This document shows positions 1-15,691 of a stretch of DNA of 20,000 nt, piece after piece (the stretch's first letter is position 1; each line of letters begins with the position of its first letter). The notes beneath the pieces are model-generated. The model did not search any database, had not been told where the DNA came from, and worked only from the letters and a program-made list of their open reading frames with translations. The stretch is from Pseudogymnoascus verrucosus (lineage: Eukaryota): NCBI GenBank assembly GCA_001662655.1, contig KV460254.1; one strand, written 5' to 3'. The translations under genes were made by a program, and so were the position numbers.

Positions 1-555
1 TCACGGATAAGAAGAAGGTATGTCTCACTTCACACACTCTAATTCCTCCGATATAGTCATGATACAAGTGCTAACGCGATACAGTTGGCGGGCATGAGCT
101 ACAACTGCCATGGCGGCAAGGGCCACGTCCAATCCATGGTCTGGGCACTCGACCGCGTCGGCATTGAGATCCTAATGAAGCCCGAAGCCGAAGGCGGCAT
201 CGGCTACTGGTGCCCCTACGACATGGTCAACGCGATCGGCGGCGAGATCCGCTCGACGCCCTCGATCATCAACGCCGGCTACGAGGTCGAGGCGCTGAAC
301 CTGGTGTACCACTCCCACGACGGCGAGGACCACGACAAGGACGGCAAAAAGGATAATAGCCCCAAGGGATACATTGAGGGCTGCACCGACGACGACTTCT
401 TCCATGATAACTACTACTATGGCTTCAATATCCATCCGTACGAGACGATCTTCATGAAGGCCGCGAGGAATATGCAGGATGTCCTTATTGGGAATTTCAC
501 CGAGTGGACTGATGGCAGTGGATACAGCTCCTACGAGGCTTGCGCTCTGAAATAA
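1..555 (+). CDS. 3' part of an uncharacterised conserved fungal protein, 5'-truncated by the window; exons <1-17 and 85-555
   Basis: Intron 18-84 has a GTATGT donor, GCTAAC branch at 70-75 and CAG acceptor. Splicing joins ...TDKKK in frame to LAGMSYNCHGGKGHVQSMVWALDRVG...HPYETIFMKAAR... with stop TAA at 553-555. Strong GC3 codon bias. The ORF-track start at 85 is a TTG at the exon boundary, not a real start. Confidence 0.85.
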
Positions 556-2503
556 AAGAAAAAGAAAAACAGAAACTTTATGCAAGACTGGGAGAATTGA
601 AACGAACGACCAAGATTATCTGAAAAGAAAAAGAAAAATGTTGCAAGAATAACAGGAACCTGCCACCAACGGCGGGCTGGGGGGATGGCGGCGGAAGGGG
701 GGGTGGGGGTTGTGTGGGAGTTGTTCTAATATGTTTCCATGCTTACATGCCGCATCACATCAAGGACGTTTACAAGGCGTTGAACCATAAAGGGAAGGGG
801 GAAATGTTTTTGGAAAGCTGTGTTTTTATTTTCTTCTCCCTTCTTCCTTCCTTCCTGGTATTTTTTGATAGCGAAGAGGAAAAGAAGGAAGGGCGGGAGA
901 GGAGGGGAGGATGGCGGGGGATCTAGGCAGTCTAATTGATGCCGGATACTTGTGCTATTTGTTTGTTGGCTATGCATTTTTTTACTAGTTGGATCGCTGT
1001 ACTTATATCTTACACCGATTTTCCCCAGTTGGTAGTCGGAAGGAGAGGGAGGGGGGGAAGACAATATACATAAATAAGACTTATTAATCAATCAATCCAC
1101 TCAAGCCATATGACGACGGTGATGATGATCGGAGACTGGGATTGATGGACTGGAAGAGGTAAGTGTGGTTTCTTCGGCTGGCCGGGGGGGAGGGGGGAGT
1201 GGTTTAGTTTTGAGAATCGAGATGGGCGTCGTGGTGAGTACGTACGTATGTGTCGTCGTGCCCCGCTGTTTCGCCACCATCGTAGTAGGCATGCCGGCAA
1301 ATAAAGCAATGGTCGATTGAGAGCGAGAGATATCTCGTACCGCCCTCGCTCTCGTGAAGTTACTGAAGCGGAAACTGGGATCCAAGGTGTGGGATTTCTA
1401 GAGCGGAGAAACAGGGATGGGGGAAAGCCGTTCACTGGGATCTATCTCGCCTATTTGCTATTTGTAGGTCAAGCATCAGGGTCAAGCTTCGATCAATCTT
1501 CAACTCCATGCCATTCTGTCTCACTTTTTTGGGGGGGGTGTTTCGATTGTACTACTTCGTTTCGTTCATGGGTTGCCTGTTGTGCTGCTTGGGGAAGGCT
1601 GGCGTGGCGTTCTTAATGCTAGGTGCTGTTTATTTCAAGTTATAATTCCATGTCTGTCGTGTTTGGCACAGCCTTGCTGGATATATGCATGTTATCTGTT
1701 TTAGTGGGAGAAAAGCTTCTGTTTTACTTTCTGGGATTTTATGTATTTGATCTACACTCTACTGTCTGTTTGATCTCCCAATGTTGTTTACTCGTTGGCA
1801 CTTGTAACCTTCTCACGATCTTGAAACGAATCGTCACGTTTCTATCCTTGATGCGGTATGGGTCTCATCCTTGATTCAGTGTCGCGGTTCTAATATCACA
1901 AACTTGTCGATGTGTCATTGTAACATCTCAGCCTTGTGGCCACTGCCAACCAATGAATACGGGTTAAAAAGCTGCCATTATACCTGCTATCAGTGCACCG
2001 GTAAAGCGCATTCGGCTTCATTACTCGGAGAGCCACATCTACAACTCTCTAGCCGGCACATCACCGCCAAAACTTTAGGCATTGAAACTCTCCATCCCCA
2101 GCTTGGCTGTGTCACGACGCTTGCTCTAGAATGACCGACTGTGGTGCATCGGAACGCTGGACGTGCTTCCGTGGACAGGAATCAAGAATTGTGTTCCCCA
2201 ACGACAAATCACGTACGACGTCAACGAGCAGTGACTGGAAACGAATGTGGTATTGCTAGAAGTACTGATTGCAGAAACATAAAAACACTTTGAGAACCAC
2301 CTAAGGGTTACACAGGTTCATACGACCATTCCTCCACGGCTGCCAATAATATGGCCAATGAAAAGGGGCTGAAAGCCAAAAACGTCAACCTCTTGCCATC
2401 AACCATGAGCTTGCCACGCCGACGCTGTGTAACAAAACCTATACCACGCGTCATTACTGGCCTTGTCTGGAGCTTCTGCAATGGAGGGAAACTTACCTGT
2501 TGC

Positions 2504-2754
2504 TTAGCCACATTCTGTGCCACAGTTTCCGCAGATCTTGCCGCGGATAACCCAGACTTCGATCCCATTTGCAAAACAGGTAGGGCATTTTACGCCGGCG
2601 ATCTTTGGGTTGTCAGTTTGGCTCTGCGTCTTATTATGGAGTCACCTACGGGCATCTGTGTGATGCCAGGCACTGGAGTCTGAGAGAACTGTGAAGCTTG
2701 GGAGGTCGCATGATCCTCTTGAGGGAGGATGTTGATTGATACGCGAGGAAGCAT
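2504..2754 (-). CDS. 67-aa microprotein with C-terminal CxxC-x13-CxxC-x3-C zinc-ribbon-like motif; exons 2754-2650 and 2602-2504
   Basis: ATG in ACCATG context at 2754. The 47-nt phase-0 intron 2649-2603 has a GTAGGT donor, ACTGAC branch and AAG acceptor. Spliced product is MLPRVSINILPQEDHATSQASQFSQTPVPGITQMP|IAGVKCPTCFANGIEVWVIRGKICGNCGTECG*. TATAAAG lies about 120 nt upstream. Confidence 0.75.
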
Positions 2755-2873
2755 GGTGCTTGGAGCGCTTTGTTGTGGGGAGTCGCAATGAGTTTGATAA
2801 AGTTGCGTTGAAGTTCAGTATTCTGGTCTATGTGTTGCTGTTGATGTCTCAATTTCAAGGGAAATTCGCTGGG

Positions 2874-2880
2874 CTTTATA
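2874..2880 (-). promoter_or_regulatory. Putative TATA box of the microprotein gene
   Basis: TATAAAG on the minus strand, about 120 nt upstream of the ATG at 2754. Confidence 0.5.
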
Positions 2881-2930
2881 CTTCGATGGGGCATTGGGAC
2901 GGGAAGTGAGAAAGGGCTTCTCAGAGAAAC

Positions 2931-3012
2931 GATTGTCCCTTGGGGGTCTGCAACTGCTTGACTGGGAGAGGGTATTCCCAGCGAAGAGATTGTCCCGCCG
3001 GGGTCTGCAACT
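2931..3012. repeat. Imperfect direct repeat, period 57 bp
   Basis: GATTGTCCCttgGGGGTCTGCAACT at 2931 and GATTGTCCCgccGGGGTCTGCAACT at 2988. Confidence 0.8.
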
Positions 3013-5597
3013 ACGGCTGAGGCATTTCGATTCAACCACGGGTACCTAACTAGGGATTGCGATCTCTACGCCTTTGGCACAATATCTCGTTGAAGTCTCG
3101 GAGCTACACGATGGGCCTGACACGGACTGGGACCCCCACAATATCAGTCAGTCCTATAGACACGATGTATGAGGATGATCTTTACATAAGCGGCGTTCAA
3201 GTCCAATCACCTAGAACTCTTGTCGGCAGTGATAGTCAAAGAAAACGAGCATCAAATGCTTGGTTTTGAATCCATGAACCATCCTGTATCCGGAGCGAAT
3301 GTGGCGGTTTTACAATGCTGTAATAGGCGTCGAGAGAAGCTTCACTTGATGAAGCTACCACACTAGCTGCAGATGTGGAGTCGGACACATCTAAAGTCAC
3401 TGATCATCTTCTTCGTCCATGCGAATGTCCATATCGCGTTTTCTAAAAGAAAGATGCGATTGGGGCGAGTAAAGGGGCTTTCAATCGTCCGAGCCCAGCG
3501 ATACGCGGATCACGGACCGTCCCCGCGTACTCGTGTGTTTACAGCGTATAAAAGACGACATCAACTAGAATGCCCGCGCTTGTAATCCAGATACATTTAG
3601 TGGATTCCGGGCACGGTCACTTCATAATTGAGATCTTCAGATAAAGCTAGTCATCTGCTCACTTCTGCCAAGGCCGCGAGCAGCTGTCACTTTTGGATCT
3701 GCCATGGTGATGGGATCTGAGATGTCCGCTCGCACAGGATATGTTTTGAGCACATAAACCCGCTGTGGATTCGAGCTAAACAAGCGCTCGGTTGCAAAAA
3801 AAAACCATCGTGTGACTTGCGTTTTATGCAATGCCATCAACCATCCCGCGGTTCTATCTTATCACATATCACCGCCGTATCGAAAAATAATCGGATTCTG
3901 ATAACAGCGGCTGTTCAGCGGGACAGGGGTAAAACCGTAATCGGATATCCTCCGAACAAGCTGGTTTTTTGGGATGGGATGGGTTGCTATGCATGCACGA
4001 CCGCGAACCGCTGATATTTGTTTTGGAAGCGGGATAATCTTTGAATATCAAATCACTATACGAGGGCTTAATGTCAATTAAGTTACTCTAGCTGTGGCGT
4101 CCAGAGAAGTGTTTTGAGAGTGAAATTCGTATTGAATCTTCCACACTGAACCAATCAGCTCCACAAGAGTCATGTCTCATTAGCACGGACGTTTCCACAG
4201 CTAAGGATGCACGTTTGCAACAGCCCCAGTTCAAGGACGTCATTAAATTAGGGGTGTGGGACATGGCAGCTGTCACAGCCTTCTTTGTCACTAGGGAACA
4301 TAAGCCGGCCTTTGCTCGTTGAGCAAGGGGCTCAACGGCCAATGTAACTGCATAAGTGAGTATTAAGATGCATAGTCTACTCTGACGGTCTTTTCCGAAC
4401 ATTGCTTTGCTCTCAGTCCGTAGACCCTTCAATGCGATGATGCATCCCAAGCAACTTGCGTAAACCCCACGCGTCGGGTTTCTTGTTTTAGCCTTTTACC
4501 TTACTTCCCTCGACATGTTGCTGACAGATATGAAGCTCGCCTTCACCACTTTGCGCGATATATTTCTTTCAGTCTGCCTCCGCGGCCATGCCTTCGGAGC
4601 TTCTCCGGTTGCTACGTCAGCCAACAAGCCAACCATTGACGATTGGACTATCGCGGAGGAGACTTCCGATCCTGCATGTCAACAATCCCATTAGTGCACC
4701 ATCTTGCGCATGCACATTGGCCTTTAACGTCCTCCCCTCCCCCCGTCTTCCTGCATCTGTGAGACCCCGCCCCGGACCGCTCCCTTCCCGTGTGCTACCT
4801 GCCGCATTGTAAGACATCCCACGGAGCACTGCATCGGGGGGGCGTTTTCACTCGCAGGATCTCAGCGGCCTGTGACTGAGCAGATACTGCGGCAGTGCCC
4901 GCTGCTGGAGTGGTACGGGTTGATGCTTTTGGCATCTCGCGATGCGACGTCGTGGGGGCATGTGTTCTAGCATGAGGCGGGGAGGGGTCCTTCGACTGCA
5001 GCGCCAAGGGAATACTACTGTATGATAGAATACATCGCTCGTCCTCCCGCTGCCGATTCATCACATATATGACAAGTCAGAAGGATGGGATGAGTGCCGG
5101 CGGTTAGCTTCACACACCCCTCCTGTTCTCCCTTGTCTGTACTTCAAGTGCCAGAGATCGGCACCCTCCTCGGTTAGCCGTCTACAGTAACTCAGGCCTG
5201 GCATTTAGGTTCTAGGGGCTTCGAGTGGAATGGCTTGATGGCGCTACATCCCTTCGGTAGGCGCCCTGTCGTCATGGATGGCAATGCTACGCTATAGAAG
5301 TCAGCGACATGCACTGGAGATCTGCAGCTGCTGGTTCGCTGCAACATGCACTTAGTAGCGAGCCACGGGGTCGCATAGAGGGCCCCAGGCCGCAGAGAGG
5401 GCTCTGCACTTGTGCGTTGTAATAAAAATCGATCGAAATTTGACGGGAACGACGGCTAGATAGTTTGTATGGTACCCAGATTATGCTACATCACCTTGGC
5501 GGTACGCCCCTTCAGATCCATTCGCCAGCTCTTCCTTGTGTCCGAAAGCCCCTTTCACCCCACGTCCCATGTGCCTCGCTCGGCCTCTACTCTACCC

Positions 5598-8053
5598 TCA
5601 GCGCTCTACCTTCTCCACGCTAATAAACAGCAGTCCATCCGTCGCCGCCCCCTTCGCGTCCCGCAGCTTCAAAAACCGGTACCCATTCTGGAGTCGATCA
5701 AGCCGCACACACGCCCACGCCGCCAACGTATCCGTGAAGCCGTCATCCTCAATACGGAACCTGCATCACCATTAGCATCCATCCTGTTGCAACCCCACCA
5801 GTCCCCGCCCCCACCAACAAAAGAAAGTGGTGATGCCCAAAGACACACACGCCCAAGGAAGAAGATCCACCCCCGGAAAGTGCCTACTAACCTGACAAAA
5901 CTCAGCTCTTCCACCACCCCCGGCCCCGCCCCGAGGAAATCAAGCCGCTCCCCCTCCCAATCCACGCTCGCCCCCCGCTTCGTCTCCGTATGCCTCTTCC
6001 ACTCCTCGCCCGCCTTCTCCCCCGCCCTCTCCGCATGTACCTCGACCTTGACGCGCGCGCGCAGCTCCTCCTCCCCTAGGATGCGCTGTGCCGCAAAAAT
6101 GCGAATCCGCAGGTCCATTAGCTTCCCCTCCACCTTATGCGCATCGAGCTCTGCGACCTCGGCACCCTCCCGCATCCCAGGCGGCTTTAGCACCCACCCG
6201 TCCGAGCCGTCGAACATGGCTTCGTTGAGCATGGTGCCGTGGTCCCAGACTTGCCAGTTTAGGGCGGCCATTTGGATGCCCTTGCGCCAGAAGCCGGAGG
6301 GATCGGGGTTAGAGGAGTCGATGCGGTGGCCGGCGGGGTAGGCGCGCATCATGTAGTTGCGGTTGTGGGCTAGGAGGGCGTTGGGCGAGGCGGCGAAGAG
6401 CTCGAGGATGTCGCCTTCGGAGAGGGAGTAGATGTGTGATGGGATCGAGGCGGAGGGGGCGGTGAGGGATGAGAAGTGAGAGCTGTGTGTGTAGATTCCT
6501 AGCGCGGAGAGGGAGGGATGGATCCGCGCCTTGTTCTTTGGGGCGGGGGAGCGGGAGGGAGAATGGGAGAGGGATGGGGAACGGGAACGTGAGGATACTG
6601 ATAGGGCGTCGAGAGCGTCGTGGGAGGTGGTCGGAGTTAGGGGTGTAGAGATAGTGGTGGTGGGGGTGAGTGTGGAGGGGCGCGGAGAGAGCGTCGTGCT
6701 TGCAGTCGTGCTTGCAGTCGTGCTTGTTGTCAAGCTTGTTGTCAAAGGCGTGATGGGGTTGCTGCTGGCAGTCATGCTAACATCGGGGCTCGGAGTCTCG
6801 GTTGGTGCGACCTCAGCACTTCTCTTAACCTTGATGAGGATCTTATTCAGGAGCTCATCGAGACGCGGCAGGCGTTCCTCGGGGTGACAGGTCGGGTGCG
6901 CGGTGTCGACAAGAACGCCCGCCCACTCCTCTTTCATGATCTGCACCATCACCTCCTGCTGATCCACATCGCAGCCCACTTGCAAGCTAACAATGAGCGG
7001 CAGGTTCGACGTCTGAAACGCACTCTCGCGCACGGCGCGGCACACTTCGCGAAAGCCGACAGCGCGCGTTAACGTCCAGGCATGCAACACAACCGGCTCT
7101 CCCTTTAAGATCGAACTCGAGCGCCCCCTCGAGTCCTTCTCTCCAGACTCATCATCTAAATCGGAATCGTCGTCGCTGCTGCTGCTGCTGCTGTCGGCGT
7201 CGCTCGTCTTCTCACGACTGATACTCGGCACATTGCTCGCCGTCTTCTTGTGCCCCAGCCTATGTCCCAATCCCGACTTCTCATCTGCGGCCGCGTGCTC
7301 TTTTTTGTCATCGCTCCGACCCCAGGGAATCTTGCCCTTCAAGGAACCGAGCTTCGCTTTGTACTCAGCTTTATACATGCGCTTGTACTTTTTCTTCGCC
7401 TGTATGGCAGATACGGCGAGGTCAGACGGGGTGGTGCCGGTGATATGAGGGATGCGGGAGGAAACGGACACAGGTTCGCCGTTGTGGACATCGATTTCGA
7501 TGCATCGACAGCCGCGGATGAGGACCTATATATCAATTAGCACAAATAAACTTTATCCCCCCACCCCACCAAGTCTTCGAGCCGACCGGGCACTCACATT
7601 TTTATAAGCATCTGTCGTACTCTTGCTCATAAGCTGGTTCCCGCTCAGATACGTATTATGGCTGCTGCTGATATAATAACTGCTGATCGGCTTCCCCAAA
7701 TCCTTATTCCCCGCCAGCGCGCCCACGCCCTCAAACCCACCCCTCATCCACAGCAGCGCCAGCCAGTCCGCAAACGTATACTCCGCGACATCCTCGCTGA
7801 GCGGAATATCCTGCCCCTGCACATCCTTCAGGAAAGCCACCAGCGCCTCGCGCGACACGAACTGCGACTCCCCGCACAGCGAAGTGTAGATCTTCCTCAA
7901 GTGCGCTTGCACGGGATGCGAGAGGTAAGGGACCGTAGGCGGCGAGGGCGCCGTGTGGTGGTGCGTCGGAGCCATGAGGGTTGTCATTGAGACGAGGGAG
8001 TGGAAGGAGAGGTGGTGTTTCTGCGCGACGCTGTGGTGGGGGAGGGGTGCCAT
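5598..8053 (-). CDS. Phosphoinositide-specific phospholipase C (X, Y and C2 domains), about 750 aa; exons 8053-7598, 7525-5892, 5760-5598
   Basis: X-box motifs YYISSSHNTYLSGNQL, RGCRCIEIDV, EPVVLHAWTLT and KILIKVK. Y-box motifs RAYPAGHRIDSSN and GIQMAALNWQ. C2 ending AWACVRLDRLQNGYRFLKL. Introns 7597-7526 (GTGAGT..GCTAAT..TAG) and 5891-5761 (GTTAGT..GCTAAT..CAG) keep the frame (2253 nt total). The start could be a slightly downstream ATG. Confidence 0.93.
6693..6745. repeat. In-frame 12-bp tandem repeats in the PLC X-Y linker
   Basis: About three copies of GTCGTGCTTGCA, then two of GCTTGTTGTCAA, encoding LTTSLTTSTTASTTASTT. Confidence 0.8.
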
Positions 8054-9045
8054 GGGTTTTCCTGGGTGCGGGGTCAGCGGTGCGGGATTTAGGCGATGGG
8101 GATGCGGGAGGGATGGTGCTTACGGTGAGACGACGTGGCGATGGCTACATGCGCTCTCTCGCTGGTACCAGGGCGAGCGGAGGAGGGATGCTGGCGGCGA
8201 GGGGAGGTTGTTTTCGAGGTTGATGAAGGATTATCGTTGTATGTGTTGTCTCCACTGTGTGTCTCCACTGTGGTTCCTGGCTTAGGCCTTGGTGAGCCTT
8301 GTCAGAAGTTATCGCGGTTGTTGCAGCGATTTGGTCAATCTCTCAAAGTATACCAGATGAACAGAGAATATTCGGAGAAAACTCGTATCATATAAATACT
8401 ATGTACAACCCAAATCCCAGCCTGACGGAGGATATAAATCCTTTCCTTGTGGACAACTCAGCCTCAGTCTCTCAGCCTCGAGCTGAAAGAATTGCGGGGA
8501 CGGTCTAGACCCTTTCTACGTCATTGATAGGTACACCGGCCCGCGAATGAGAGCCTGCCAGCCTTGTGTCTGCCGAGCGGCACATCGTAGAGTGCTGACT
8601 TACAATAACCACTATTATCAAGGTTATGCGGAGGTGTTTCAGAGAGACCAGCTGGAGTGATAGGGTGAGACGCCGTCTTAAACTTTGCTGCGCTTCTTAC
8701 CGCGGTGCTGCGCCAATGTAGGCGGCCGAGTGGTCGGCCAAGAGGCGGCGCCTAGGGACGGCCCGCCCTAGGGTCACAACATCGTCCTTCGGCGGGGAAA
8801 TGGATTGGTGCTGATTGATTTTGCTAGGAATTGAGTTTAAGCATTGCGGAGTGGCTAACGGCGAGGCATTTCAACTCCGTATCCGTGGCCTTTGTCTTCG
8901 GGGAGGACGCCAGAGTCTCACTGCATTTACCCCTCGCCGAATGACGCATCCAGCAACCATCAACACCACCACATAAAAAGGCGACCAGCGCACAACCGTA
9001 TCCCCCATTCCAAAGACCCCATCTCCTCCTTCACCAAAATCAATA

Positions 9046-9876
9046 ATGGCTCCAACCCCGCCACCCTCCTCCGTCCTCACAGCCTTCTCCCTCACCACCC
9101 CCCCAACCCCCCTCCCCGGCGGCCAAAACACCTCCTTCCTCAGCGGCACCACAGTCCTCAAACACATCCCTCCCACCCCCACCTCCGAAGCAGAATGGAC
9201 ATCCCACACCCTCTCCCTCCTCCCTCCCTCCCCCCACTTCACCATCCCCACCCCCCTCCTTGCCTCAACCGGCTCCTACGTCCACGAGAACTGGACCGCA
9301 ACCACCTTCTACCCCGGCACAGCCCACCCCGTCGGCCATTGGGACGCCCTATTCTCAGCAGCGCGGCACTTCCACGCCTCTCTCGACGGGATCCCAAGGC
9401 CGGACTTTCTGCGCAAACGCACGCATCCGTGGGCAAGGGCTGATGGCGTCGCGTGGGGTGAGGAGTCCGTCGATATCGTTCCGGCTCTGGCACCGCTGTA
9501 TTCGCGCCTCGTATCTCTACGCAAGGAAGTGGGCGTAGTGATAGCGCAGCTCGTGCACGGGGATTTAAGCGGGAACATCCTCTTTTCTGACGACAAGCCT
9601 CCCGTGATTATCGATTTCTCTCCCTTCTATCGATGCGTTGATTACGCCGTCGCGATCGCTGTTGTAGACGGGATTGCGGATTTCGGGGAGGGAGAGGAAG
9701 AGGTCTTAGGCGCTTCCGGGCTGGGGACGGGGAGACATGCGGTGCAGATGCTAGTTCGGGCTCTGTTGTTTAGAGTCGTGGCGAGGAGTGAGCTTGTGGG
9801 TGTTATGGGGGAGGTGGGGGCGAGGGAGATGAGGGGGTTTGAGAGGGTGATGGGGGTTATTGAGAAGTATGTCTGA
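9046..9876 (+). CDS. Aminoglycoside-phosphotransferase/choline-kinase-fold protein, 276 aa, intronless; resembles the actinobacterial TIGR02569-type family
   Basis: ATG in ATAATG context. Brenner-type motif QLVHGDLSGNILF, metal-binding IIDF and N-lobe LPGGQ...VLK. Family-like segments PPSSVLTAF, FHASL..IPRPDFL, PWARAD.VAWGE and DFSPFYR are recalled from memory, not searched. Confidence 0.85.
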   Translation: MAPTPPPSSVLTAFSLTTPPTPLPGGQNTSFLSGTTVLKHIPPTPTSEAEWTSHTLSLLPPSPHFTIPTPLLASTGSYVHENWTATTFYPGTAHPVGHWDALFSAARHFHASLDGIPRPDFLRKRTHPWARADGVAWGEESVDIVPALAPLYSRLVSLRKEVGVVIAQLVHGDLSGNILFSDDKPPVIIDFSPFYRCVDYAVAIAVVDGIADFGEGEEEVLGASGLGTGRHAVQMLVRALLFRVVARSELVGVMGEVGAREMRGFERVMGVIEKYV

Positions 9877-10275: not shown

Positions 10276-13247
10276 ACAAACCAACACCCTCTCGCCCTTC
10301 CCTCCCTCCGCCAGCTCCCCTAACCCCCTACTCCTCCCCCCAATCCACGCCCCATACCCGCCCCCCACAAAACTCACCGTCTCGATCCCCCCCTTCGCCT
10401 TCGGCCTCGGCCACGGCGGTAGTTTCGTCCCAGCCTTAGGGGCGGGGTGGGGTGTCTCCCCGGCTTCGACGAGGCCGCCTGAAGGCGTGGTGTCGAGGGC
10501 TATGGGGTGTCGTGGTGGGGTTACGTCGGTCGCGCTGGGGATGCTGGTGGGGGTGTCTGTGGTCGTGGAAGCGTCGGTGGAAGATCCCGTGACAACATCC
10601 ATGACAGAATCCGCGACAGCTGTCGTGATACCGGTCGTGGAAGCGTCCGCAGCAGCGGGGATAGCTGGCTCAGCACCAGCTGTTGCAGGAACAGCAACTG
10701 CGGTACCATCCGCTGCCGCAGACGCGGGCGCAGGAGCAGCCGCATCAGCAGCAGGAGCAGGAGCAGAAACACCAGTCTCCACCATAGGAGCTGCCGTACC
10801 TGCTGTCACGCCAGGCACAACCGGCTCCCCCGCCCCCACCCTCACCACCCCCCTAACCCCCGTCACCCCCGCCACAACACTAGGCATAAAACTGCCAAAC
10901 AACCACGGATACTGCATAATCTCCGCCTCAAACGCGCTCACCGTCTCCTTCGCAAGAGCTTCGTACTTGTCGTCCCCCAGCAGGCTGGCGAGCCGGAACA
11001 GGTTCGAGGCCGAGACGCCGTTGGTGGAGGGTTCGGAGGCGTCCATGCCGTCTTTGAGGCGGAGGATGGTGTGTGGGGCGGCGGCAGCGGTGGCGAAGAA
11101 GCCGGAGGAGAGGGGGTCGAGGAAGTGGGTTATTTGGGTTGCTGTGTGCGCGTTAGCTTGGGTCCAAGATATCCAATCTTCCTAGCCACATGACGAAGCC
11201 GTGGGGTAGGGAAGGGCGGGGGGGTTAGAAAGGGAGACAGAGAAAGGGGCAAAGAGGGAAAGAAAAGAAAATCACTCACCCTGCAGCTCATCAGCCCACC
11301 TAACCCACTCATCCTCAAACGTCGCCTCATACAGTTCCAGCAGCCCCTCAACCAAAAACGCATAATCATCCGCAAACCCCGCCGTCTCCCCCGGCCCATC
11401 GCGCCACACCCTCCTCAGCGTCTTAGCATCCTCATCATACATCTCCCTCCTCACGAACCTCGCCGCCCTAATCGCAGCATCAAGACACTTCTCCGACATC
11501 TCCCCATCCACCTCCCTCAGCGACGATCCCGCGCGCGCCAGCGCCCCAATCGCTATCCCGTTCCACGCGCATACAATCTTATCATCCAGATTCGGAGCGA
11601 CGCGCTCGGCTTCTCGGTGCGCGAGAAGGGTGCGCTTCGCGGCCTTGATCGTCTCCACGACCTCGGACTCGGAGATGCCGAATTGCGACGCGAGTTGCGA
11701 GGGGGTGGAGGCGATGCGGAGGACGTTCTGGTTGATGAACTCGTCGTGCACGTCGTGGCTAGGCGCTACATTGCCATCGGGACTCACACCGAAGAACGCG
11801 GATACGATATCCGCCGCGCCGCCGCTGGGGAGGAGAGTCTCCAGCTCGCGCGCAGTCCAGACGTAGTACGCCCCCTCGCGCGTCTCCTTATCCCCCTTGC
11901 GGTAAAACGAATCCGCATCCTGGGAGCTGTAAAATCCGCCCCCCTCTCTCGCAATGGGCGCAGAAGTCAAATACGCAGCGAGATCGTAAACAACGCCCAG
12001 AAGCTCCGCGTCCGGTTTCTGCAGCCCGAGAAAGGCGTCCAGGTACACATGCAGCAGCTGCGCGTTGTCGTACAGCATTTTCTCAAAGTGCGGCAGCGAC
12101 CAGTCCGCCGTGACGCTGTAGCGCGAGAAGCCGTGGCCGATGTGATCGTGGATCCCTCCCCTCGCCATGGCGCGCAGGCTGGAAAGCGCCATGAACTGCG
12201 CAGATTTGACCTCCTCCGCGCCGACAACATCAAGGACCGGCTGCGGGAAATGCGGCAGCCGGAGCAGGAAGGACAGTTTGCTGGGCGTGGGGAACTTGGG
12301 CGCGGCGCCGAAGCCGGAGTTGGTCGTGTCGAAGGTGGACATGAGGTGCTGGTAGGCCTCATCGATGACATCGAGATCCAACCCCCCTGCTGCTGGCTCG
12401 GCGCCCGCTTTGGTAGCGCTGCCGCCGCCGAGAGTGCCCTCTGCGGCGAAGTCTTTGAGCTGCTGTAGGATCTGCGCGGAATCGAGACGGCATCTGGATT
12501 CCTGCTCGCGCCAGGCTTGGGAGAGCTTGCTGAGGATGCCGAGGAAGTCGACGTGGTCCTCGAGTTCGAGCTGGGGGGTGTTGGAGTGCGGGCCGTGCCA
12601 GTACGTGCCTCCAAACACCGGCTCGAGGGTCGGGGTGACGAAGACATTGAGAGGCCAGCCGCCGGACCCGGTCGTGGCTTGCACGAAGTTCATGTAGATG
12701 CGGTCGATGTCTGGGCGCTCTTCGCGGTCGATCTTGATGGGGATGAAGTCCTTGTTGAGGATCGCGGCGACTTCGTCGTTCTCGAAGGATTCTTTCTCCA
12801 TTACGTGGCACCCTGGGTTATGTTAGCTGGGTATATCGGACGCCGAGGGGAGGGGTAAGGAAACGTACAATGGCAAGCGCTATACCCAATACTAATAAAC
12901 AACAATTTATTCTGCTTCTTCGCCAACTCAATCGCCTCATCCCCAAAAATCTGCCACGCAACTGGATTATTCATATGCCCACGCACCTATCCACCAGTCA
13001 GTCAGTCAGCCGCGGTTCCATCCCCATCCTCCACCTCCACAGCGCCGGCAAAACTCACATAAGGACTCCTACTCTCCCCCGCCCTATTCCTCAGCGTCGT
13101 CACAGCGGGGACATCTTCCTTCGCCGCCGCCGCGCCGGCATCAACAGGAGCAGCAGTCTGCGCTCCCACGCCCCTCTCCTCCCTCGCCTTGAACCCCAGC
13201 TTCTCCGCCGCTTCTCCTAACATCGACTTCCCCTCCGCGCCGACCAT
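10222..13247 (-). CDS. SPATA20/SSP411/YyaL-family protein (DUF255 thioredoxin-like domain plus six-hairpin glycosidase-like barrel), about 919 aa; exons 13247-13059, 12986-12869, 12812-11280, 11141-10222
   Basis: Spliced motifs NR...SRSPY|VRGH..NPVAW, IGYSACH-W-CHVMEKESF (Trp codon split by an intron), DREERPDID, GGWPL, PKFP, PHFEKMLYDNAQL, DADS, EGAYYVWT, DDKIVCAWNG and DGMDASEPSTN. Introns 13058-12987, 12868-12813 and 11279-11142 are all GT..CTRAC..AG. Total 2760 nt in frame. Confidence 0.95.
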
Positions 13248-14505: not shown

Positions 14506-15691
14506 TTAGCCGACGACCGCGGATTTGCCGAGGGGCTTGAGGACGTTGGCTGCGTATTGGCCACCGACGTTTCCTTGAGGGTGAGTTAGTAAAGGGGTTC
14601 ATTTGTTAGGGAGGGTCGAAAAGGGGGGACGTACCAGGGCTGCCGTAGTTGCAGACGGTGTACCATCCGGAGAAGGGCGCGGAGAACATCGGGCTGCCGG
14701 TATCGCAGAACACTGTTGCGCATCCGACGGTCCCGGTGCCCTTCCAGACGACCTGGCTGAAGTGGCCCCAGCTGTGGAAGTTGGACATGTCCGGGTCGTT
14801 CTGGCCGTACATGGAGGGGTCGAAGAGCGGGAGCTCGCCGTTATACCACTGGTTGGAGATGGCACCTCCGGAGATAGTGGCAGGGTCGCGGGACTTCTCG
14901 TCGCCCGAGCTGCCGGACTGCGCGAGGTTCTGGCCGTAGCCGCCGCCGCCGATGCTCGTGTCGTGCTTGAAGACGCAGGTCTTAGCGAGCTGGGCGGCGT
15001 AGCCGGCGAGCTCGTCGCTGTAGGTCAGGGCCGGGGCGGAGTGGTTGGTGCGGTGCACGTTGTGGTGGAAGAGGACGGCGCTCTTGTAGTCGGTGCCGGC
15101 GGGGGATGCGACGGGGGCAGCGGCGGCGGTGGTCTGCACAACGGGGGCGGCCTGGACTGGTGTCTCCTGGACGACTGGGGTGGTCACGGCGGGGGTGGTG
15201 TCAACTACGACGGCTTGCTGGGGAGCCTGGGTTGTGACGGGTGCCTCAGGGGTGGGGGTTGGTGTCGGGGTCTCGACGATTGGCTCCGGAGTCGGGGTTG
15301 GGGTTGGGATTGGCTGCGGGGTGGTGCTCTCGAGGAAGATGGCATCGGTGAGCACCGGTGCGGGAATAGTTGGGGTCACGACAGGCGGGGTCGAGGTGGT
15401 GGTTGGGACGACGCTGGAGCTGGTCTTGGTCTAATCGGGGTGTTAGCGTGCCGATCGTTCAAGATGAGGATAGCTGATTGGCGACCAAATCGCCAGTCAA
15501 CGCCAATTGAGCACTCGAAAATGCCAAATATTGAGATGGGGGTGTGAAGGAGGACTTACAGTAGAGAGGCCTTCAGTAACGAAGACGGTCACGTAGTCGA
15601 TAACGACGTCGGTGACATATGCGCGCTTCTGGACGGGAGCGGCAAGGGCGAGGGCGGACAACCCCGCGAGGACGATAGCTGAAGAGCGCAT
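14506..15691 (-). CDS. Secreted CAP (SCP/Tpx-1/Ag5/PR-1, Pry-like) protein, 331 aa; exons 15691-15560, 15430-14635, 14573-14506
   Basis: Signal peptide MRSSAIVLAGLSALALA, then APVQKR (Kex2-type dibasic site) and a Thr/Pro-rich stalk. CAP motifs HNVHR, YGQNL, WYNGE, GHFSQVVW, VGCA and YTVCNY..PGNV. Introns 15559-15431 (GTAAGT..GCTAAC..TAG) and 14634-14574 (GTACGT..ACTAAC..AAG). 996 nt in frame. Confidence 0.95.

Follow-up and report, generated by a model that had tools for sequence, protein, structure and literature searches.

We describe a small spliced gene of the fungus Pseudogymnoascus verrucosus, located in a 20,000-nucleotide stretch of contig KV460254.1 (assembly GCA_001662655.1; hereafter the window), and the occurrence of its cysteine-bearing domain in fungal mitochondrial DNA (mtDNA). 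The mtDNA copies are intron-less, often bear the exon-exon junction and have been recoded for mitochondrial usage, and their protein sequence is conserved. We are fairly confident that spliced messenger RNA (mRNA) was copied by reverse transcription and entered mtDNA through recombination on at least three occasions. Between the two compartments, genes move almost exclusively from mitochondrion to nucleus. If true, the present case would represent a repeated and selected transfer of a 31-residue domain from nucleus to mitochondrion through spliced mRNA, the reverse of the usual direction.

A Spliced, Single-Copy Nuclear Gene

The window locus is a single-copy, three-exon nuclear gene for a 67-residue protein (table 1), with one match in its own genome assembly (G000). 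An original prediction, made from the DNA letters, had proposed such a gene with a 47-nucleotide intron complete with donor, branch point and acceptor. Comparing four sequencing runs over positions 2200-3200 of the window, we found a contig of run X1, a relative and not the same strain, which jumps exactly 47 nucleotides from 2602 to 2650, skipping 2603-2649 with CT..AC ends. The expected junction is therefore present, in a run that, like the other run with a spliced contig (X2), is only guessed to be RNA. This contig differs from the window by 20 letters in its exon-1 piece and by 1 in its exon-2 piece, and intron 1 is retained in X7 and X8, the other two runs covering that place. Loose contig ends from two studies, X1 at 2495 and X2 at 2440, fit a spliced junction of intron 2. 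The alignment of a diverged contig of X8 spans precisely 2504-2754, showing 48 differences but no gap, and the end of this gapless alignment supports the start at 2754.

Further details of the prediction were also seen: an ATG at 2754 (minus strand) with A at -3, a TATA box at 2880-2875, and an in-frame TGA at 2644 that shuts the exon-2 frame upstream, the unspliced reading from 2754 giving 54 residues without the cysteines. The gene is neither hidden nor missed, as had been supposed, since the joined coding exons translate letter for letter into database protein P0007, on record as XP_018127141.1 / VE01_08804, an uncharacterized Pseudogymnoascus protein. The spliced gene is confirmed as real and was already annotated. 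The intron in the 3' untranslated region (UTR), the linkage to a PI-phospholipase C (PI-PLC) gene and the mitochondrially encoded copies had no place in the prediction.

A Pezizomycotina-Wide Family with a Four-Cysteine Knuckle Domain

The protein belongs to a Pezizomycotina-wide family without a Pfam model, which joins a variable, disordered N-terminal tail to a conserved four-Cys knuckle domain. HMMER or profile methods are needed to see it, single-sequence word-based searches having returned just 2 and 3 proteins. With exon 2, phmmer gave 101 representatives at E<=0.001, of which 4 looked false on inspection and were left out, and a profile search gave 328 proteins of 71-2000 residues. Among the best 120 of these 328, from which names were taken, the NCBI models are from Sordario-, Leotio-, Eurotio- and Dothideomycetes and none has an assigned function, in agreement with the poorly annotated fungal family that had been anticipated. 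In the Atlas, 150 eukaryote proteins form a cluster of their own that shares no Pfam entry, and Pfam itself gave 0 families at cut-off for P0004 and P0005.

The proposed pairing of CxxC knuckles is borne out by C41, C44, C59 and C62, invariant both in an alignment of 44 proteins, a set not chosen by DNA pattern, and in one of 30; a Pro, three Gly, a Trp and a Val are likewise invariant in the 44. Conservation of the cysteines, W-V and the intron position had been expected of any true homologues and is found, save for the fifth Cys, which is present in 144 of 195 domains. N-termini are Pro-rich and run to 29-54 residues; the 35 residues of the window exon 1 include five Gln, five Pro and four Ser. 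Identity is 23-29 of 35 residues over exon 1 versus 27-32 of 32 over exon 2. AlphaFold models have a pLDDT of ~90 over the knuckle domain, built of short strands and one helical turn, and of <50 for residues 5-22. With high confidence, the four invariant Cys would hold one structural metal ion, probably Zn.

Some members have additional features. A conserved N-terminal motif, R-L-G-I/V-E-Q-L, is seen in the Capnodiales-type proteins P0135, P0141, P0148, P0152, P0159, P0170, P0179 and P0192 and is absent from other lineages. Tandem double-domain forms occur (P0025, P0113, P0114), and in P0107 the domain stands at the end of a 1244-residue Zn2Cys6 model that may result from merged genes.

Gene structure was followed with a DNA-pattern scan of metagenome contigs, the pattern fixing 10 of 31 codons. 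At least 114 loci were found, making 115 with the window locus (96 GC-rich, 19 AT-rich). An AG stands at the same phase-0 place as in window intron 1 in 83 of the 96 GC-rich loci, against 0-11 at other in-frame offsets. Of 69 distinct cases, 61 have a branch-like motif ahead of this AG, the control window giving 7. Eleven of the remaining 13 have a branch motif and acceptor a few codons further up, and two (L011, L026) look intron-less. Within 30 nucleotides past the stop, a donor-like motif is present in 35 of 65 distinct nuclear loci, compared with 3-7 in later windows, and is followed by a branch motif and YAG in 29 of the 35.

Intron-Less Copies in Mitochondrial Genomes

The 19 AT-rich loci among the 115 are mostly mitochondrial and intron-less. 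Their invariant Trp is read as TGA in 14 of 19, versus 0 of 96 GC-rich loci, and the acceptor AG is found in 1 of 19 versus the 83 of 96 given above. Pfam-verified mitochondrial core genes lie on 11 of the 19 and tRNA genes on 3 more; L092 and L099 carry the same cassette as L075, L105 resembles the cob fusions, and the mitochondrial call of L096 is made from TGA-coded Trp and composition. L046 has the look of a decayed nuclear copy. The gene atp6 was not found in G000, the mitochondrial copies being known from other fungi.

The placements of the domain are diverse. One-frame fusions include cob-domain-cox2 (L014), domain-cox2 (L057, P0113) and cox1-domain-cox2 (L097, P0114); elsewhere it stands after cox1, cob, cox2 or nad4, before atp6 or cox3, or behind atp9-, atp8- or cox3-like starts (partly recognised by eye). 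Among five such hosts, identity over the Cox2 core is only 62-76%. Of the 16 intact low-GC copies, 12 have a transmembrane-like segment near the domain, as against none of the 68 named nuclear models. Given the known topology of Cob, Cox1 and Cox2, the knuckle domain of the cox2 fusions would lie on the matrix side.

Several further observations concern these loci. Duplicated gene ends flank many of the mtDNA insertions; at L009:4800-4875, the end of nad4 is a degenerate version of the mature N-terminus of Cox2, directly before the domain frame. P0057, P0069 and P0187, each from a 24,738-bp contig, carry one identical domain sequence after cox1, after cob and behind a cox1-tail-like piece, and are possibly three copies in one small mitogenome. 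The cox1-cox2 linker of L075:1502-3046 (plus strand, table 4) has a different Cys/His insert, with two CxxC pairs after H-P and an Ala-rich lead-in, which may be a second captured nuclear microprotein. An alignment-based scan of viral contigs gave no relative, and the DNA pattern gave one match each in prokaryote genomes (L116) and viral contigs (L117). L116, a 476-bp, low-coverage contig of a bacterial assembly, has a fungal exon 2 with acceptor and UTR donor and is probably contamination. L117, on a 156,707-bp contig filed as viral, resembles a fungal mitochondrial genome, with a cox1 tail, TGA-coded Trp and, by eye, endonuclease-like open reading frames (ORFs).

Selection on the Mitochondrial Copies and Their Origin

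The broken copies L042, L046 and L053 were left out of selection tests and trees. The tree also omits L057 and L092, whose proteins are identical, as well as nuclear loci at least 29/31 identical. A further clade test was run after removal of 9 long rows and of 10 mitochondrial rows represented by protein only, with one row belonging to both sets.

At the 21 codons outside the pattern, GC1/GC2/GC3 is 0.59/0.57/0.16 in the mitochondrial copies versus 0.62/0.53/0.54 in the nuclear ones. Toward the nearest nuclear copy (neighbours picked by identity), pS is 0.6-1.1 and pN 0.06-0.23, and pS exceeds pN in diverged mitochondrial pairs as well; L009 and L020 are alike at 30 of 31 residues and at only 61 of 93 bases. 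Our best reading of this pattern is that the mtDNA copies are under purifying selection and would be kept by it.

Two marks of processed copies, intron loss and a kept exon-exon junction, are found in the mtDNA copies. A Pro precedes the junction in 13 of the 19 AT-rich loci, and in 14 independent mitochondrial copies the stretch of six residues leading up to the junction resembles the ends of nuclear exon 1 above background (p<1e-4; 5e-5 without the Pro column). Traces of poly(A) or target-site duplication are unlikely to have survived, because synonymous sites are saturated. In the 31-column tree the mitochondrial copies scatter among nuclear subfamilies, and three tests reject their grouping in one clade (p-AU 0.002, 0.012, 0.002). 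Repeated movement out of the mitochondrion is implausible because the intron position is common to the classes. Repeated capture of the spliced form would be the simplest reading of these sequences. The Pyrenophora-type domains adjoin a cox1-cox2 frame, and a cox1-cox2 layout is reported for Coniothyrium glycines (PMC6221350), which suggests a concordance of the mtDNA copies with host lineage.

A Proposed Mechanism and Its Alternatives

Taken as a whole, the best explanation would be a metal-knuckle module, captured into mtDNA from mRNA, whose ligand lies at the mitochondrial inner membrane; we give this complete scenario an even chance. Insertion beside duplicated gene ends would provide both a start and a membrane anchor. 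With the Cys held by the metal, the conserved W-V-I-P-G hairpin would be displayed for binding, for which reason we read the protein as a putative small adaptor or inhibitor rather than an enzyme. Mitochondrial copies would be membrane-tethered and mostly matrix-facing versions, delivering the same activity in cis. The placement of the ligand at the inner membrane is tentative, falling a little short of an even chance, and is preferred because nothing else as simply explains residue-level conservation inside the organelle. Candidate ligands are an anionic lipid surface or a factor in the assembly or turnover of the respiratory chain. Somewhat more probable than the complete scenario, on the sequences at hand, is its narrower core, namely mRNA-mediated, repeated capture in several ascomycete lineages, with predicted translation as a selected membrane-anchored domain or as a linker of cob-cox2 and cox1-cox2 polyproteins, possibly a mitochondrial mimic of a nuclear regulator in cytonuclear conflict.

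Several observations weigh against this scenario. Three of the 19 low-GC copies are broken (L042, L046, L053), and 3 intact ones with a closed frame lack an in-frame ATG. Only 11 of 57 nuclear models have a net charge of at least +2 with at most one acidic residue in their first 20, and 37 of the 57 N-termini are neutral or acidic; there is no classical presequence. The junction signature is poor in 5 of 14 mitochondrial copies. The conservation is read through a pattern that fixed 10 of 31 codons, identity was the criterion for choosing nearest neighbours, and the tree, of 31 columns, has 3 starred branches. Regarding the metal, 5 of 14 haloarchaeal C(P)XCG microproteins lack zinc (PMC11241148). 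Finally, a mitochondrial role leaves unexplained a genomic linkage that points to cytosolic signalling.

This linkage is with the PI-PLC gene upstream of the window locus. In 16 nuclear relatives' loci a PLC gene also lies upstream on the same strand, 1.8-4.5 kb off, corresponding to 13 of the 21 distinct loci with at least 4.9 kb of upstream sequence; it is never downstream or inverted, and of the neighbours tested it alone recurs. By type, the loci with this linkage are similar to those of Dothideo-, Eurotio- and Sordariomycetes. The nuclear protein, which has no presequence, might in consequence be a cytosolic regulator coupled to PI-PLC in phosphoinositide/Ca2+ signalling, the mtDNA copies being a secondary use of the fold. 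We consider this unlikely, given that 8 of the 21 loci have no PLC within 5 kb, that linkage may persist through common cis-elements or low rearrangement without a common function, and that non-ligand residues are nearly unchanged in the mtDNA copies, in a compartment where PLC is not expected. A complex prediction of PLC (L064), Zn and the domain, made without alignments, scored 0.00 and weighs neither for nor against. The possibility that the Cys exon is the last exon of PLC itself is ruled out by the PLC stop at 5598 and by the spliced contig joining the Cys exon to exon 1.

An alternative scenario, compatible with the others, sees the mtDNA copies as selfish chimeric ORFs like those of cytoplasmic male sterility (CMS), that is, membrane-anchored mimics disturbing the pathway of the nuclear protein and biasing mitochondrial transmission or fitness. 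Many insertion sites lie beside duplicated ends of cox1, cox2, cox3, atp8 and atp9 (partly by eye), and tandem duplicates (P0113, P0114), the three domain proteins from 24,738-bp contigs and the broken copies are as such elements would leave them, as is a gain-and-loss pattern combined with strong protein conservation. Such turnover also fits a dispensable beneficial gene, and we regard this scenario as improbable. An equally improbable option is a partner-free metal buffer or one-electron carrier (a Cu/Zn chelator or rubredoxin-like Fe site) at work in any compartment. With five Cys in 26 residues in most members and a TATA-type promoter, its single activity would explain selection in both compartments, but lineage-specific non-ligand residues are held tighter than chelation needs, and rubredoxin motif order and spacing are absent (RUBY_RBDX in 5 of 38 members, best E 0.026).

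Still less probable is an origin of the gene in mtDNA, a derivation of the mtDNA copies from intron-less nuclear DNA, or sideways spread after one capture. Two of the 96 nuclear-type loci (L011, L026) have the intron-less look such a source requires, and the mitochondrial rows are clustered on the tree (15 changes vs 22.4 shuffled), indicating some common ancestry. Nevertheless, one intron position across four classes is incompatible with repeated moves from mitochondrion to nucleus, the rejection of a single mitochondrial clade argues against spread from one capture, and the pattern reveals no prokaryotic or viral copy, the two single matches looking like a contaminant and a mitochondrial contig. 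Only a slight chance is left for a 34-residue working product from the second ATG (2655), with most of exon 1 as leader: exon 1 varies freely (8 of 9 listed X1 coding changes are non-synonymous) and 33-residue database forms exist (P0016, P0031), but the ATG at 2754 has the better context and coincides with the end of an indel-free alignment of the diverged copy. Many relatives lack a Met near the junction, and an N-terminal motif is conserved among members of Capnodiales type.

By itself the window gene is modest, an annotated hypothetical protein whose value is as an entry to the family. If the capture of spliced mRNA into mtDNA is true, it would make testable how RNA or complementary DNA enters mtDNA, what role orphan ORFs and polyprotein linkers have in fungal mitogenomes, and whether CMS-like cytonuclear conflict occurs in fungi. 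The class-spanning PLC linkage offers a separate handle on function.

Other Features of the Window

Upstream of the relatives of the gene, a k-mer search gave the TATA motif as its sole clear signal, GTATAAA being present in 12 of the 40 regions and in 3 of the 91 background segments (best of many k-mers, uncorrected). Two putative regulatory elements, a direct repeat pair and a block kept in the diverged copy, both lie upstream of the TATA box (table 1). The core 10-mer of the repeat is found in 0 of 116 other loci and is so only local. Rfam gave no match within window positions 500-5600, nor did Pfam for four other frames of the gap, including the antisense frame 2294-2683.

Table 1. Coordinates of the Gene, Its Putative Control Elements and Its Neighbours in the Window.
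Feature	Position	Strand	Remarks
170-aa frame	43-555	+	no Pfam match; not recurrent beside relatives
3'-UTR exon 3	2236..2438 (far end open)	-	X1 record 1 (2236-2420), X2 record 3 (2301-2440)
Intron 2, 58 nt, in 3' UTR	2439..2496	-	GTAAGT..TAG; begins 7 nt past stop
Coding exon 2, 32 aa + TAA	2504..2602	-	CPxC-x14-CxxC knuckle domain, W-V and fifth Cys
Intron 1, 47 nt, phase 0	2603..2649	-	GTAGGT donor, CTGAC branch 2616-2612, AAG acceptor
Coding exon 1, 35 aa	2650..2754	-	low-complexity, predicted disordered; 3' end has the G-I-x-x-M-P family signature
TATA box (TATAAA)	2875..2880	-	sequence motif
Putative cis-element, 38-nt direct repeat, two copies	2918..3012	.	82% alike, 57 nt apart
Upstream non-coding block kept in diverged copy	3015..3144	.	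run X8 record 8 aligns solely at 2504-2754 and 3015-3144
PI-phospholipase C gene (EF, X, Y, C2-like end)	5598..8119 (5' end approximate)	-	own stop at 5598
299-aa frame	8977-9876	+	no Pfam match; not recurrent beside relatives
DUF255/Thioredox_DsbH protein gene	11272-12822	-	not recurrent beside relatives
CAP-domain protein gene	14606-15430	-	not recurrent beside relatives

Comparison with Known Domains and Mitochondrial Parallels

Fold searches gave weak matches (Foldseek best E 2.7; VIA best Z 2.4), the full-length 67-residue model having no VIA match at Z>=2, and the best hit of a PDB profile search was a partial match to archaeal Rpo12 (E 0.044). C4 zinc ribbons (Zn_ribbon_3 PF13248, zinc_ribbon_6, YhfH, Zn_ribbon_NUD) likewise have two CxxC knuckles. 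Such Pfam ribbons match weakly in up to 17 of 38 family members (best E 0.0005-0.003), and YhfH-like clusters are the nearest named look-alikes in the Atlas (score 0.90, but 116 of 256 features in common). Unlike these families, ours has its own W-V-I-P-G motif, a fifth Cys and a stand-alone microprotein form. RanBP2/NZF fingers (Npl4, TAB2, Nup153, RBM5) are similar in having ~30 residues and four Cys, and six of the eight structural matches reaching Z>=2 are of this kind, the best Z being only 2.4. Their pattern is W-x-C-x2-C-x3-N-x6-C-x2-C; the present domain lacks the Trp before the first Cys and the Asn, and has 14 residues rather than 10 between the second and third Cys. Rubredoxins have CxxCG first and CPxCG second, ~30 residues apart. 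Membership among the rubredoxins, to which the original prediction likened such ribbons, does not hold, the motif order being reversed and the spacing 14, with RUBY_RBDX rare and weak as given above and no Pfam ribbon family at cut-off for the window protein. A C1 (diacylglycerol-binding) domain, considered owing to the PLC neighbour, has two His ligands and six Cys, and no His is conserved in the family.

The haloarchaeal C(P)XCG one-domain zinc-finger microproteins (PMC11241148, PMC6562870) also have <70 residues, two Cys pairs and a single domain, and function by binding. They are Atlas feature look-alikes at 0.87-0.88, an analogy that does not imply homology. The 67 residues of the window protein fit this group, and Phe, Ala or Leu, not Gly, follows the first knuckle. 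By analogy, the protein looks like a C4 zinc-ribbon microprotein and would probably work like NZF fingers or C(P)XCG microproteins.

A literature search found neither the family, nor six locus tags, nor the mtDNA copies, although supplementary tables of mitogenome ORFs could list such ORFs; the family and its mtDNA copies are not described in the accessible portions of PMC7902536, PMC6221350, PMC11633160, PMC8979003, PMC4045975 and PMC11241148. Ascomycete mitogenomes are reported to hold accessory genes such as an N-acetyltransferase, an aminotransferase and orphan ORFs (PMC7902536), and in-frame cox1-cox2 polyproteins occur in fungal mtDNA (PMC6221350). The consulted parts of both sources name no Cys-knuckle domain, linker domain or intron-bearing nuclear parent for these cases. 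The chimeric mitochondrial ORFs of CMS type in plants combine, like the mtDNA copies, a core-gene piece, a transmembrane helix and foreign sequence (PMC4045975), a build also found in P0184 (ATP-synt_C), L014, L057 and L097, among others. The same paper reports a nuclear gene copied into plant mtDNA, there split by a 5-bp deletion, and transposons as most of the nuclear-derived DNA. Unlike the plant case, the same small domain recurs here across many fungal mitogenomes, in its spliced form and, on our best reading, under purifying selection.
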